A stretch of DNA of 12,807 nucleotides from the UHGV virus genome UHGV-1674620. One strand, 5' to 3'. Every line of letters begins with the position of its first letter. Within the stretch, counting starts at the first letter, position 1. The notes under the pieces are model-generated. The model had not been told where the DNA came from. It saw nothing but the letters and a program-made list of their open reading frames with translations, and did no database searches. Made by a program: the position numbers and the translations under genes. Below are positions 6,041 to 10,089 of this stretch, one piece after another. The DNA is from a virus.

Positions 6041-6261
6041 GCCACACCTCCCAGACGCTTAAACATTTTTCCGGAGCAAAAGGCTATAAGCGGCATACTG
6101 ATGCGGTAATTACGGCCCAGCGGTTCACAAATCACCTTCTGACATTCACGGTCAACCAGGCTGACACGTAGAACATGCCCTGCAGGCGTGGTGTACCACT
6201 GACCAGGACGAGGACAACGGAAAGTCTGATTGGTAAACCGTTTGAAAATATTCCGGATCAT
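6037..6261 (-). CDS. Hypothetical phage protein, 74 aa, four Cys
   Basis: Track ORF; ATG at 6261 overlaps the Rha-ORF stop (ATGA) and is preceded by a G-rich Shine-Dalgarno; its stop overlaps the next gene's GTG. Confidence 0.4.
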   Translation of the reverse strand: MIRNIFKRFTNQTFRCPRPGQWYTTPAGHVLRVSLVDRECQKVICEPLGRNYRISMPLIAFCSGKMFKRLGGVA

Positions 6262-7406
6262 TTGCGCCCCCTTACCTCTGAAGGGTTCAGCGACAAATTT
6301 ATGAGACTGGCCAGTAGCGCCGCGTCGTTGATGCGGTCATACAGACTTACAGCCAGCGGTGATTCGGCTTTTGCCAACATGGGATAAAGCTGCTGCAGCC
6401 AGACCTGATGAATTGATGAAATGTAGGAATAGAGAACGCTGGCGTTATGTGCAACGTCGCTCAGTACAGAGGGATTTGAAAGCTGTTTCTCCATCTGGTT
6501 AAAGGCATTGATGTATGCCTCTTTGAACTGGGCAGCACGTTTACCCGTGAAACCCATAGCAAGAAACGCAAAGCCGTCGCGGGTTATTTGATAGCAAGGT
6601 AGTTTGCGGCCTGTGCAATCGGTGTAATCACTCACCGAAAAATTGCGGGAAGTGAATGATGCAGAGCATTCAAGCGTGCGGATCTTTTTCAGTACATCGT
6701 CATGACGTTTGGAGAAGAAGTTGGCAACAGCCAGGGATGAAGTAACAGCCTGACCATCAACGATGGCAATTTCAGGTTGAGTGAGGGTTGGGATCGTAGC
6801 CATGATGGCAGCCTCCGTTGACTGTGGAAAACTTCCACCACCGGAGCTGCGAAACTCACTGGTGGCAGACTGAACAGGGTTCGCAGTACCGGCGTCAACG
6901 GAGACCGGCGAGCCTTTCGGCTCCCCTGCCCAGCCCACCATAATTCTGGCGTGCGTGAGCGCGGACGATAAAAAAGACGCTGGCGCGTCATATATCGCCG
7001 TTGACAATTCCGGGCTGCGACCCCCGGCACCCGCTTTATAAGGTGCCTGAGCAGTGTAACGTCCCGGAATTGCAGAATCAATATGCTGGTGGTCCTTCAC
7101 ACTCAACAAAATCACGCCTGAATTTCCACAAAGGACTAAAGCACTCATGCGGGTAGTCTTTGCGAAGATAGATAACGCGCTGTGTTTCTGGCTCCCAACG
7201 AATAACATGAACATAAAGTCCTCTTCCGTCACGAAACCAGCGGTTAAGTTCCTGCACAACTCGCCCCCCACAGTCAGGTAAAGTTCTCTGTGGTTACTTA
7301 CAGCCAGGTGATTTGGTAATCTGCATTCATGCCGTAACAACAGGTGTTCAGCGACGCTGACCACCAGCTGTTGCGACAAACGGTTATTTGCCGTTAAACT
7401 ATTCAT
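6258..7406 (-). CDS. Rha-family phage regulatory protein; the Rha domain is the C-terminal 181 aa (internal start at 6803), preceded by about 200 in-frame codons of unknown function
   Basis: MATIPTLTQPEIAIVDGQAVTSSLAVANFFSKRHDDVLKKIRTLEC is the characteristic Rha N-terminal signature (TSL.VA..F.KRHD.VL..I). The ATG at 6803 has GGAGG 8 nt upstream. The frame stays open upstream to an ATG at 7406 that overlaps the cII-like stop (ATGA). Confidence 0.6.
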   Translation of the reverse strand: MNSLTANNRLSQQLVVSVAEHLLLRHECRLPNHLAVSNHRELYLTVGGELCRNLTAGFVTEEDFMFMLFVGSQKHSALSIFAKTTRMSALVLCGNSGVILLSVKDHQHIDSAIPGRYTAQAPYKAGAGGRSPELSTAIYDAPASFLSSALTHARIMVGWAGEPKGSPVSVDAGTANPVQSATSEFRSSGGGSFPQSTEAAIMATIPTLTQPEIAIVDGQAVTSSLAVANFFSKRHDDVLKKIRTLECSASFTSRNFSVSDYTDCTGRKLPCYQITRDGFAFLAMGFTGKRAAQFKEAYINAFNQMEKQLSNPSVLSDVAHNASVLYSYISSIHQVWLQQLYPMLAKAESPLAVSLYDRINDAALLASLINLSLNPSEVRGRK

Positions 7407-7960
7407 GCGTTAGTTTCTCCACAACCAGAAGCAATCGACGCCACGACGCCCGGAGCTGCACACTCGCGGGCGTTACTATTTTCTGGAGCGCAGAAGATTT
7501 TGTAGACCAGTGCTGCATGCTCCTGGAGCTTCGAAATTGAGAGGTACAGCTCGTCGTTAATTGCTGTCTTCTCATGCGGTTCCACTACACCGTCTTCGAT
7601 TGCTGAACGAATCTGTCTGGAATAACTGCCGATCTGTTCAATGACTTCCAGCAGACGCTGGTTAATATCGGCGTTGTCCACATCCTCGACGTCAGGAAGA
7701 GACACAAAGACGCCATTTGCAGACTGCGCCACAGCGTCAGCAATGAAGTGAGTTCCACCAGCACGTTGTAAAATCATTGCCCATCCCAGCGGGAAAATCT
7801 GATCGCCATCGGCACGAAGGCGATTGAATAAAGCGTTCTCTGTTACATCCAGCCACTCAGCAGCTTCAGCGTAACCCCCCGGCAATGCCGCGATAGTTTT
7901 TCTGACAGCTTTCACGTACCACTCAGGTTGTTTTTCCACTTTCCAATGATGCTTACCCAC
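7403..7960 (-). CDS. CII-like phage regulatory protein (CP76-type), 185 aa
   Basis: Immediately downstream of cro, overlapping it by 8 nt; GTG start with AGGAGG 6 nt upstream. Weak resemblance by memory to the phage regulatory protein CII (CP76) family, which occupies this position in E. coli prophages. Confidence 0.5.
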   Translation of the reverse strand: MGKHHWKVEKQPEWYVKAVRKTIAALPGGYAEAAEWLDVTENALFNRLRADGDQIFPLGWAMILQRAGGTHFIADAVAQSANGVFVSLPDVEDVDNADINQRLLEVIEQIGSYSRQIRSAIEDGVVEPHEKTAINDELYLSISKLQEHAALVYKIFCAPENSNARECAAPGVVASIASGCGETNA

Positions 7961-8213: not shown

Positions 8214-8310
8214 ATAACCTCCACATATTGCGTGATGAGCATATTATTTCACGCAAATATTTTGCGCAAGTTGATTTGCTTAACGCGCAATAAAGAAATG
8301 TAATAAACGC
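8214..8310. promoter_or_regulatory. Immunity operator/promoter region (OR-like) with divergent PR and PRM candidates
   Basis: Minus-strand PR candidate: -35 TTGCGC (plus 8264..8269), 17-bp spacer, -10 TAATAT (plus 8241..8246), then a leader with GGAGG. Plus-strand PRM candidate: -35 TTGCTT (8276..8281), 17-bp spacer, -10 TGTAAT (8299..8304), which would start transcription at or near the cI ATG (no Shine-Dalgarno upstream of cI). Dyad elements: TTGCTTAACGCGCAA (8276..8290), palindrome TTGCGCAA (8262..8269), TTGCGTGATGAGCAT (8228..8242). Confidence 0.55.
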
Positions 8311-9003
8311 ATGAACATAGGAAATCGAGTCAGACAACTTCGCCAGGCGAAGAACATGAAAATCGCCGATCTCGCTGAAGCAATAGGAGTGGATGCGGCG
8401 AATATCTCGCGCCTCGAAACAGGTAAGCAGAAACAATTCACTGAACAAGCCCTGAGTAATATTGCCAGGAGCTTAGGTGTTGATATTGCTGATCTCTTTA
8501 CCTCAGACCTCAAAAGTAATACTGTATGTAAAAACAGTATTAGTGAGGATGTTGCGCAGGTGAAGGATGTATTCCGTATTGAAATGCTGGATGTCAGTGC
8601 CAGTGCGGGAAATGGCCTTATCCAGGGCGGTGATGTCATTGATGTGATTCATGCCATTGAATACAGAACTGATAATGCTGTATCGATGTTTGGTGGACGA
8701 CCAGCAAATCACATTAAAGTTATCAACGTTCGTGGGGACAGTATGTGTCCAACCATTGAGCCAGGAGATCTCATCTTCGTTGATATCAGTATCAATCAGT
8801 TTGATGGGGATGGTATATATGTATTTGGTTTTGATGATAAAATTTACGTCAAACGACTGCAAATGATACCTGATAAACTGCTGGTAATTTCTGATAATCA
8901 GATTTACCGCGAATGGGGAATTACCAGCGAAAACGAACATCGGTTTATGGTCTTTGGAAAGGTCTTAATCAGTCAGTCACAAACCCTTAAGCGACACAAT
9001 TAA
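8311..9003 (+). CDS. CI-like prophage repressor (N-terminal XRE-type HTH, C-terminal S24 LexA-like autopeptidase domain)
   Basis: 230 aa; HTH MKIADLAEAIGVDAANISRLETGKQ; S24 motifs VRGDSMCPTIEPGDLIFVD (Ser) and IYVKRLQ (Lys), with a candidate Ala-Gly cleavage site in DVSASAGNG; divergent from cro. Confidence 0.9.
   Translation: MNIGNRVRQLRQAKNMKIADLAEAIGVDAANISRLETGKQKQFTEQALSNIARSLGVDIADLFTSDLKSNTVCKNSISEDVAQVKDVFRIEMLDVSASAGNGLIQGGDVIDVIHAIEYRTDNAVSMFGGRPANHIKVINVRGDSMCPTIEPGDLIFVDISINQFDGDGIYVFGFDDKIYVKRLQMIPDKLLVISDNQIYREWGITSENEHRFMVFGKVLISQSQTLKRHN
8520..8539. promoter_or_regulatory. Candidate LexA (SOS) box inside the cI coding sequence (linker between HTH and S24 domains)
   Basis: TACTGTATGTAAAAACAGTA: 20-mer with perfect TACTGT-N8-ACAGTA architecture (12 fixed positions matching the consensus TACTGT(AT)4ACAGTA); encodes NTVCKNS of CI. 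Confidence 0.45.
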
Positions 9004-9024
9004 CCCCCTACCTCAACATCAATT

Positions 9025-9046
9025 AGCCACCAGAAGGTGGCTTTTC
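9025..9046 (+). terminator. Putative terminator after cI
   Basis: AGCCACC-AGAA-GGTGGCT hairpin (7-bp stem) followed by TTTT, beginning 22 nt after the cI stop. Confidence 0.4.
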
Positions 9047-9059
9047 ATTACCCACCAAA

Positions 9060-9098
9060 TTGCATATCTCGCAATAAAAACACTTGCATAATGCGCAA
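9060..9098 (+). promoter_or_regulatory. OL-like operator pair, possible PL region
   Basis: Two 15-bp dyads with the same architecture as the OR element: TTGCATATCTCGCAA (9060..9074) and TTGCATAATGCGCAA (9084..9098), centres 24 bp apart. -10-like CATAAT at 9087..9092; no clean -35 at 17-bp spacing. Confidence 0.4.
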
Positions 9099-9542
9099 CT
9101 TCATTTTATCTTTCTTTCCAGACCTACAAACAAGGTACTAACAAAATTTGGTTGTAACACGGCGTATGGCACATGCGTCGTTAGCGGTCTGGGGACGTTA
9201 AAGGGGACAATCCACTCCTTGCTCGGGCAAACAAACCAGGTAGCCGGAATGTGCAAGTCAATGAGGATGCTGATAAGACGCCTAACCAGCGTGGCGATTC
9301 GGTTTGACGCCTGGGAAGAGACCAGGACGCAACGATGAGAGCATTTATGGAGCCGCGACAAAGTGTGGTGCCGTAACTGGCTAAGTGCTCTCAGCGTTGT
9401 GGTGAATGCGCAGGCTGATGCGCGAAAGACATTGCAGCTATTGCGGAAAAGAGCTGTTCGGCGGGGCAATTAAACGCCCGTGAGAGTCTGAAATAACCGC
9501 AAGCCGGAGATCAGCACCGGTCACCACAACAGCCACTGCTTT

Positions 9543-9589
9543 GGCGGTACCAGTTTGTACACTTGCTTCCGGCTGGTACCGCTCTTTTT
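9543..9589 (+). terminator. Putative intrinsic terminator at the end of the noncoding leader
   Basis: Arms GCGGTACCAG (9544..9553) and CTGGTACCGC (9573..9582), 10 bp perfect, followed by TCTTTTT (9583..9589). The 19-nt loop is long for a canonical terminator. Confidence 0.45.
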
Positions 9590-9590
9590 A

Positions 9591-9677
9591 CAAAACAGAG
9601 AAGAGCATCACCGGACGACGGGCTCATAACCCAATCCATCCGGGCGGCTGCCACCGCAGGTGTTCTTCTCTGTTTTG
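9591..9677. repeat. Perfect 14-bp inverted repeat (extendable to 17 bp with one G-U) flanking a 59-bp GC-rich spacer, upstream of the early-left operon
   Basis: CAAAACAGAGAAGA (9591..9604) and its exact reverse complement TCTTCTCTGTTTTG (9664..9677). Confidence 0.6.
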
Positions 9678-9726
9678 TGGAGAAACCAACCGACCTTGCA
9701 GGGTCGATATGATGAGGAGCAGCAAA

Positions 9727-10089
9727 ATGGCTAGCGTACGCAGTACTGATGTGCAGGTATTTATCGTAGAACTGGACGGCGGCGTATTTGAAACCAAACT
9801 CGGCGCAGTTCTCAGTGAAGTCGCTTCCGGTGTGATGAACACGAAAAACAAAGGTAAAGTCTCGGTCAATCTGGACATCGAACCGTTTGATGAGAACCGT
9901 GTGAAAATCAAACACAAACTCTCATATGTTCGCCCGACTAACCGCGGGAAAATTTCCGAAGAAGACACCACCGAAACGCCGATGTATGTCAATCGCGGTG
10001 GTCGCCTGACTATTCTGCAGGAAGACCAGGGACAATTACTGACTCTTGCCGGTGAACCTGACGGAAAACTCCGCGCAGCAGGTCATTAA
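9727..10089 (+). CDS. Hypothetical phage protein, 120 aa, first gene of the early-left operon (possibly YfdP-like)
   Basis: ATG at 9727 has GAGGAG about 9 nt upstream; the track ORF start at 9541 would run through the terminator hairpin and is rejected. The YfdP resemblance is from memory of the CPS-53 gene order and size only. Confidence 0.55.
   Translation: MASVRSTDVQVFIVELDGGVFETKLGAVLSEVASGVMNTKNKGKVSVNLDIEPFDENRVKIKHKLSYVRPTNRGKISEEDTTETPMYVNRGGRLTILQEDQGQLLTLAGEPDGKLRAAGH

Follow-up and report, generated by a model that had tools for sequence, protein, structure and literature searches.

The virus genome UHGV-1674620 (12,807 nucleotides (nt), the whole of which is referred to here as the window) is 100% identical to phage mEp460 (JQ182728) over the region tested, a lambdoid phage of the SfV, e14 and CPS-53 type whose 'leftward' direction is the + strand of the window. 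Between a cI-like repressor gene, with palindromes beyond it that are read from their sequence as oL/pL, and a yfdP-type open reading frame (ORF), the first early-left gene, lies a long inverted repeat at 9590–9678. The ~630 nt that separate the oL/pL-like palindromes from yfdP contain no credible gene. As RNA, the repeat closes a conserved three-way junction, a domain of ~90–135 nt that keeps a fixed position on the + strand ahead of the early-left genes and bears at the tip of one inner hairpin the anticodon stem-loop sequence of the initiator tRNA, tRNA-fMet. The parts of this element, together with a further hairpin (D3) immediately downstream, are as follows.

9590–9609, + strand: 5′ arm of the closing helix P1, ACAAAACAGAGAAGAGCAUC, the left copy of the repeat (sequence, minimum free energy fold and RNAalifold).
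9611–9643, + strand: P2, a rod-like inner hairpin, CCGGA-CGAC-GGG[CUCAUAA]CCC-AAUCCA-UCCGG (fold, RNAalifold and pair counts).
9644–9657, + strand: P3, a short hairpin, GCGG-CUGCCA-CCGC (family alignments and pair counts).
9659–9678, + strand: 3′ arm of P1, GGUGUUCUUCUCUGUUUUGU, the right copy of the repeat (sequence, minimum free energy fold and RNAalifold).
9679–9686, + strand: conserved single-stranded tail, GGAGAAAC (fold and RNAalifold).
9691–9706, + strand: D3 hairpin, CGACCU-UGCA-GGGUCG (RNAfold survey of 83 distinct downstream sequences).

Direct reading of the sequence gave a perfect 15-bp inverted repeat, ACAAAACAGAGAAGA at 9590–9604 and TCTTCTCTGTTTTGT at 9664–9678, with a 59-bp spacer. 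A sequence-only reading of the window had reported the same repeat as 14 bp (9591–9604 and 9664–9677); the repeat is real, and its length had been underestimated. In the repeat search, its arms extended to 25 nt (9590–9614 and 9654–9678) at 84% complementarity. The judgment that such a repeat is unlikely to be accidental was borne out, as a perfect inverted repeat of at least 14 bp with a spacer of ≤100 nt was present in only 1 of 300 dinucleotide shuffles of the 12.8-kb window, and the window itself contains no second one. Its placement was also given correctly: the repeat starts one base past the T-tract (9585–9589), at 9590, and ends 49 nt (reported as ~50 nt) before the ATG at 9727. The 101-nt RNA spanning 9585–9685 folded at −51 kcal/mol, compared to −24.8 ± 3.4 for 200 dinucleotide shuffles (z = −7.8), none of which was equally stable. 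What had been understated is the object itself, since the repeat is merely the outer helix of a three-way junction whose interior is the most conserved part.

P1 is a 20-bp closing helix that includes two G·U pairs (G9605·U9663 and U9608·G9660). From its base, P2 consists of CCGGA/UCCGG, an internal loop, GA/UC, a second internal loop and the terminal GGG-CUCAUAA-CCC. P3 is hypervariable in both sequence and length and can be replaced wholesale, with inserts of ~27–30 nt and, in some members, ~40 nt at this position. The tail at 9679–9686 can pair weakly, with G·U pairs, to the U-tract at 9585–9589 (alifold columns 6–9 with 128–131); for the tail/U-tract pair 6:160, the counts were UA 27, CG 25 and UG 13. 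The D3 hairpin lies between the element and the Shine–Dalgarno sequence, and its stem varies freely as the loop keeps (U/G)GCA or GUGCAG(A), a pattern typical of a hairpin recognized by a protein or an RNA. P1 lacks the makings of an intrinsic terminator, being followed by GUGGAGAAAC on the + strand and by an A-rich stretch on the − strand, and it is not listed by the terminator scan.

The structure was assessed across a family of related loci, more than 200 of which were gathered by pattern scans of IMG/VR, GTDB genomes and metagenomes. The first sample had been picked on the P2 tip motif, and the family was collected anew by anchoring on the arms alone. Hosts include Escherichia, Shigella, Salmonella, Citrobacter, Klebsiella, Enterobacter and Kosakonia, as well as Mixta, Atlantibacter, Trabulsiella, Buttiauxella, Mangrovibacter, Phytobacter and Yersinia. 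In a covariance-model-based alignment of 79 distinct sequences, standard pairs occupied 96.9% of the cells, compared to 42–55% when the 3′ partners were slid by 1–3 columns. Two-sided changes were seen at 12 pairs, in 164 cells, and the observed score was attained by 0 of 500 shuffles; this control overstates significance, as the sequences share ancestry and had been aligned by fitting to the model. The slid-partner control is free of this weakness, as is an independent MAFFT alignment in which RNAalifold recovered the same three helices. P1 was 97.6% paired, with six pairs altered on both sides (swaps such as CG 41/GC 37, AU 52/GC 25 and AU 68/GC 9). P2 was 97.7% paired, and its basal pairs CCGGR/YCCGG covaried, G–C swapping with A–U; in P3, all three pairs were altered on both sides. 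Co-variation of the arms in homologues, whose absence the sequence-only reading had listed as counting against it, is present: the arms are conserved as a helix and the P1 pairs swap on both sides. U·G predominates at several positions (at two of them, in 69 and 71 of the 79 sequences). Read from the opposite strand, these conserved pairs would become A·C mismatches, and in duplex DNA they are asymmetric; the functional form is therefore the + strand RNA. One locus (L081, 9203–9336) is a natural chimera that joins a window-type 5′ arm to a 3′ arm of another subtype, so that P1 contains mismatches; the conserved P2 core therefore seems to be a site of recombination.

The 97-nt stretch 9586–9682 has homologues in 2,808 of 5,426 complete E. 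coli genomes (median one copy, maximum five per genome). At the element, Rfam gave nothing in a gathering search of the whole window or in a search of 9000–9800 at E ≤ 10, where the weak matches (hairpin ribozyme and rydB) were judged to be chance; a search of five related loci also gave nothing. No published description of the element was found in literature searches on ymfH, yfdP, xisE and RNase III or on initiator-tRNA mimics. The family is new and very common, though unannotated; it sets a tRNA-fMet-like tip on a stalk, and phages of distant phyla also carry the motif of the tip.

The P2 tip, CGGGCUCAUAACCC (9619–9632), shares a 14-nt identity with the anticodon stem-loop of the E. coli initiator tRNA (metY, tRNA-fMet). 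Its shape is also that of tRNA-fMet, with three consecutive G–C pairs and a 7-nt loop containing CAU; CGGGCTCATAACCC at 9619–9632 is thus an anticodon stem-loop identical to that of a cellular tRNA, metY. Throughout the family collected by the arms-only anchor, UCAU and the G/C stem are invariant. The next two loop bases are AA in about two thirds of the members, UC in ~30% and AU in the units of P1-like phage described below, so the tip is anticodon-arm-like rather than a strict copy. ARAGORN detected no tRNA gene in the window, and no Rfam tRNA model matched at E ≤ 10. A complement to the tip of at least 8 nt had no consistent position within −500 to +400 and was present in ~19 of 204 loci. 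Pairing of the loop with the start codon (GCUCAU with AUGAGC) was considered and dropped, as it is available in many yfdP-type members but not in the window or in members with other first genes.

The P2(+P3) core is also displayed on short closing stems of ~6 bp (L090 and L157/L229). Outside the enteric bacteria, the motif GACGGGMUCAUWMCCCAAUCC was located at the tips of long perfect hairpins in other phyla. These include a Planctomycetaceae genome, with a gpA-type terminase gene on one side and a lambda-type portal gene on the other (L248, 5560–5720); an Acidobacteriaceae genome, adjoining Dam methylase and glucosaminidase genes (L281); and a deltaproteobacterial contig, flanked by genes for an AAA/SMC-like ATPase and a GP88 protein (L286). 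In these three, the genes beside the motif are of phage type. The motif was also present in Saccharibacteria (L244) and in a few metagenome contigs (among them L379). The pattern used for the genome-contig scan was over-degenerate, with ~200 chance matches estimated and most non-enteric matches being noise, and genome-contig matches were retained only if they had long flanking helices. Four independent cases had flanking helices of 9–12 bp, compared to ~0.2 expected among ~85 chance matches by a rough estimate.

Around the element, the window carries the following features.

8311–9003, + strand: cI-like repressor gene (annotation and homology).
9025–9042: terminator of the repressor gene.
9059–9097: two TTGC-N7-GCAA palindromes resembling those between cI and cro (sequence).
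~9328–9401, + strand: D0, a long hairpin with arms CAACGAUGAGAGCAU and GUGCUCUCAGCGUUG that resemble P1 (repeat search; weak covariance-model match, E = 0.16).
9395–9588, + strand: sRNA-17, the left neighbor of the element and separate from it (primer mapping).
9544–9589, + strand: terminator hairpin GGCGGUACCAG...CUGGUACCGC followed by UCUUUUU, the 3′ end of sRNA-17 (repeat search and published primers and probe).
9727–10089, + strand: yfdP-type ORF, the first early-left gene, PHROG 204 (homologous annotations).

Downstream, the gene order is yfdP, yfdQ and yfdR. The synteny of the element was examined in 203 oriented loci. A repressor homologue was upstream on the same strand in all 61 loci where one was recognizable, a yfdP homologue was downstream on the same strand in 142 of 142 and ymfL, the gene after cro, was divergent in each of the 162 loci with a homologue. 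The covariance model found one strong copy per locus across 85 sources, and none on the pR side. Since members differ in which gene comes first downstream (yfdP, xisE in e14 and several others), the element serves the operon rather than one gene. In one locus (L079), it is located ~130 nt after the repressor stop, directly past an operator/promoter-like stretch and with no terminator between. A clear sigma-70 pL promoter was not picked up in the window by a simple scan. TTGC-N7-GCAA palindromes flank the repressor gene (ATTGCATATCTCGCAAT, TTGCATAATGCGCAA and TTGCTTAACGCGCAA, at 9059–9097 and 8225–8300) and, judged from sequence, probably represent the oL and oR operators for this type of immunity. 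The ymfL-type gene of the window (7403–7960, − strand) belongs to Pfam Phage_CP76, the CII family of phage 186, and its homologues are present in essentially every element-bearing locus, though the repressor and cro types differ. The E. coli K-12 e14 prophage holds a copy with 83.5% identity upstream of xisE-intE. In that copy the tip is mutated to UUAAUAA and P2 contains a mismatch, and the 'ymfH' annotation there (L002, 3819–4130) covers an sRNA-17-like domain, its terminator and the element; ymfH is probably not protein-coding.

The left neighbor, sRNA-17, is a 193-nt RNA mapped by rapid amplification of cDNA ends (RACE) and Northern blot in E. coli K1 RS218 by Sun et al. (2020), and sits in an intergenic region of >1 kb of an mEp460-like prophage (PMC7719688). 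It was placed on the window through the published primers and probe (PMC7719688, Table S2). The full-length primers correspond to 9395–9427 and the reverse complement of ~9557–9588, and the Northern probe is antisense to the + strand at 9448–9497. The element begins at 9590, one to two bases past the sRNA-17 end and outside its 193-nt transcript, and is not described in that paper (PMC7719688). The hairpin ahead of the T-tract, taken for a terminator in the sequence-only reading, is the 3′ end of this published RNA. It is usually co-inherited with the element, and in Salmonella phage As1 the terminator stem is of a different sequence, GTCGGCGTC/GACGCCGAC. In the delta-sRNA-17::cat mutant, yfdP was up ~95-fold (PMC7719688, Table 1). 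This deletion leaves the terminator and the element in place, and the rise in yfdP is most simply explained by read-through from the resistance cassette.

The 5′ end of sRNA-17 mapped by RACE, C9395, falls within the 3′ arm of D0, whose arms were also given as CAACGATGAGAGCAT/GTGCTCTCAGCGTTG; this suggests that the end is processed rather than primary. D0 is followed by a domain at 9396–9530 (+ strand) closed by GTTGTGGTGA/TCACCACAAC, and ~40 nt of the region (9384–9425) are ~90% identical to stretches in HK620, JL22, phiEt88 and Ackermannviridae Klebsiella phages. A D0-type hairpin with a D1-type domain was found in HK620 (late leader, between qut and late terminator), in Erwinia phage phiEt88 (ahead of a tRNA gene) and in one Ackermannviridae Klebsiella phage. 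The P1-like phage JL22 (L129, 1924–2721) carries tandem long-hairpin units directly after its tRNA-Asn and tRNA-Thr genes, with four covariance-model matches, one of them on the opposite strand. Two of the units bear the P2 motif (ACGGGGUCAUAUCCCAAUCU and ACGGGUUCAUAUCCCAAUCU), that is, the ACGGGNUCAUAUCCCAAUCU tip, and a T-arm-like insert, GGUUCGAAUCC/GGUUCGAUUCC, is shared by another JL22 unit and the D0 of phiNP. The JL22 units underlie an annotated 'plp' lipoprotein ORF and an adjoining small hypothetical ORF, two calls that may deserve a second look. In the window, the minus-strand ORF at 9101–9469 (mEp460_037) matches no PHROG, translates into a low-complexity, junk-like sequence, is left uncalled by the NCBI pipeline in homologous prophages and is probably spurious. 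Short matches to 'plp lipoprotein' in P1-like phages had made it a candidate lipoprotein gene, which was rejected for the same lack of a PHROG match and junk-like translation; the matching region in P1-like phages consists of the RNA-hairpin units adjoining tRNA genes. A likeness of GGCGGTA in the upstream hairpin to ops/RfaH was also dropped, as the sequence is not conserved in the family.

We favor, tentatively and as something plausible rather than probable, the account in which the element is a double-stranded processing stalk of the RNase III type, on which the tRNA-like hairpin is displayed and at which sRNA-17 is divided from the early-left mRNA. Of the functions suggested for the repeat in the sequence-only reading, the 5′-untranslated regulatory hairpin or processing site fits best, as the element is a + strand RNA, covaries in >200 loci and stands in the early-left leader. 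In lambdoid phages of the mEp460/SfV/e14 type, the domain is transcribed on the + strand within the leader of the early-left (pL-type) operon, and in transcripts that pass the sRNA-17 terminator, P1 would form a putative stalk, most likely cut by RNase III. Such cleavage would part the upstream structured RNAs from the early-left mRNA and leave the latter with a defined 5′ end beside D3. It would also free or expose the P2/P3 'cargo', with the tRNA-like tip open to a trans-acting partner. Three observations argue for a processing stalk: the length of P1 is kept near 20 bp in the family alignments while its sequence changes; like stalks carry varied inserts and occur in tandem beside tRNA genes, where multi-RNA precursors need cutting; and the mapped end of sRNA-17 (C9395) lies in the sister stalk D0, a cut within a D0-like stem being expected to give an end of this 5′ kind. 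With 20 bp in P1 and up to five weak U-tract pairs, the stem has the ~20 bp or more of near-continuous double-stranded RNA used as the criterion for RNase III.

By analogy with known systems, the element would act most like a leader processing hairpin, and in outline it looks most like C4 RNA. RNase III processing hairpins occur at similar positions in the leader of lambda N, at the R sites of T7 early RNA and in the metY-nusA-infB leader. The element resembles them as an irregular hairpin of about two turns of double-stranded RNA, placed in a polycistronic early leader just before the first gene, and in metY-nusA the hairpin likewise follows a small stable RNA and its terminator. It differs in that P2 is far more conserved and is found on short stems and in other phyla, and in that cleavage here is predicted.

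Several points weigh against the processing stalk. The near-invariant interior is unneeded by an RNase III site, and no part of the family is more conserved than the P2 tip; the model leaves this invariant tip unexplained, which points to a separate trans-acting partner. The stems of ~6 bp that carry the tip in L090 and L157 are too short for RNase III. Many members have a central P1 mismatch (alignment column 22:115). The ~95-fold rise of yfdP in a mutant that retains the element shows that the element alone does not block downstream expression, and the 5′ end of sRNA-17 was read by its discoverers as a transcription start and not as a processing site (PMC7719688).

The conserved tip is the starting point of another explanation, possible but doubtful, in which the element is primarily a scaffold that displays a mimic of the anticodon arm of initiator tRNA, the tip acting in trans as a decoy or sponge and P1 providing stability or release. 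Tip recognition of this kind has a parallel in mRNA operators that mimic tRNA anticodon arms, such as the thrS operator. Among cellular factors, VapC-type nucleases, IF3 and the ribosomal P site have roles toward tRNA-fMet; candidate targets would be a PIN nuclease of the VapC type, which cuts tRNA-fMet in its anticodon loop, the P site of the 30S subunit together with IF3, or MetRS. The 14-nt identity with metY falls in the same setting as in the tRNA, a 3-bp G–C stem with a 7-nt loop, UCAU is invariant in every member under the arms-only anchor and no complementary cis site of at least 8 nt lies nearby. That prophage regions of other phyla also have hairpins tipped with the extended motif agrees with a partner that is universally conserved, and related long hairpins hold the T-arm-like GGUUCGAAUCC inserts beside tRNA genes. 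The resemblance to tRNA-fMet stops at the three G–C pairs and CAU loop of the tip, however. Below them the stem is unlike that of a tRNA (C·A opposition, with AAUCC conserved), ~30% of members have CUCAUUC, with a U at the tRNA '37' position unlike real tRNAs, and the element has no cloverleaf, acceptor arm or T arm and is not seen as a tRNA by ARAGORN or the Rfam tRNA model. The broader proposition, that phages of several phyla bear an initiator-tRNA anticodon-arm hairpin as a decoy or sponge, set in enterobacterial lambdoid phages on a 20-bp stalk within the early-left leader, with a VapC-type toxin, IF3/30S P site or MetRS as candidate partners, is in our view unlikely.

A highly conserved interior would equally be expected of an RNA that binds a host machine, and a cis-acting processive antitermination RNA, put-like as in HK022 or nut-like, could let polymerase started at pL traverse the long early-left operon in phages without N. 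In mEp460 and phiNP, there is no N-like ORF between the repressor gene and yfdP, and in some members, such as L079, the element is the first conserved element of the pL transcript. It would have in common with put that it is structured, highly conserved and protein-independent and that it lies close to where an early transcript of an N-less lambdoid phage begins. We consider this improbable because put, an RNA of ~70 nt, has a V-shaped arrangement of two stem-loops that lacks a long closing helix, and it follows both pL and pR (PMC9378689). The element, in contrast, is a three-way junction with a long closing helix, is confined to one operon without a copy on the pR side and in most members comes after, not before, the only strong terminator of the leader. 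It has no sequence similarity to the HK022 pL/pR region, a blastn-short comparison with the HK022 immunity region giving chance words of 8–11 nt, and identity with put was rejected on these words, the fold and the copy number. The 3′ arm matches the BoxA consensus GYTCTTTAANA (PMC5725501) at just 6 of 11 positions; GCTCTTCTGTG (in the window, GTTCTTCTCTG) agrees at the first six positions only, is base-paired and was likewise discarded as a BoxA. There is also only a small chance that the element is a C4-like antisense or regulatory RNA, or a site for a phage RNA-binding protein, that controls translation of the first early-left gene. C4 (of phages P1/P7; RF01695, clan CL00128) has the same architecture, a long closing helix of 17–20 bp round two hairpins within a longer phage transcript, and a genuine C4 is present elsewhere in the window. 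Many yfdP-type start regions read AUGAG(C/U), complementary to the loop GCUCAU, and D3, with its variable stem and conserved loop, resembles a protein-binding hairpin. The element nevertheless scores with no Rfam C4-clan model even at E ≤ 10 over 9000–9800, lacks nearby targets (no conserved complementary site of at least 8 nt within −500 to +400) and downstream icd/ant-type genes, and stands in the pL operon rather than in an antirepressor operon. The AUGAG match is missing from the start codon of the window and from members with another first gene, and the first gene varies. With no clan match and inconsistent tip complements (~19 of 204 loci), assignment to C4 was abandoned. A feature acting at the DNA level, either the terminal repeats of a mobile element or a palindromic site for a protein such as the CII-like YmfL, is very improbable. 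The repeat is long and perfect in this phage and YmfL homologues accompany the element in nearly all loci, as would be expected for a shared phage lineage. The sequence-only reading had raised both options, as a miniature inserted element and as a dimeric protein-binding site, and neither held up. Among the 40 E. coli matches listed for a junction query of the two flanks, none was an empty site, the matches that covered both flanks being two pieces ~87–89 nt further apart. The flanks, TTTTT and GGAGAA, differ and give no target-site duplication, and a single copy in fixed synteny and orientation per prophage is at odds with dispersed mobile copies. U·G pairs that dominate at several positions in the 20-nt arms would break the symmetry of a DNA site, and the inner hairpins covary independently.

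The C4 RNA of the window (RF01695, 78.8 bits; 6858–6945, − strand) lies in the rightward operon in tandem with an isrK RNA (RF01394, 58.7 bits; 6970–7046, − strand), directly upstream of a Rha-type antirepressor gene. The listed ORF at 6258–7406 overlies both RNAs, and its true start is probably downstream of 6858.

In a large group of lambdoid phages without N, whose members include the Shigella phages SfV and SfII, Stx2c phages and relatives of e14 and CPS-53, the element stands at the head of the early-left operon. Homologues are present in about half of complete E. coli genomes, yet there is no Rfam family for them, and the K-12 e14 copy is masked as 'ymfH'. If P1 is a processing stalk, it would define how sRNA-17 is separated from the early-left mRNA. 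If the mimicry of the tip is functional, the element would belong to a novel class of phage RNAs that act on initiation or on tRNA-directed defense, and as a decoy it would be a non-coding anti-defense or translation-takeover RNA of an undescribed kind.

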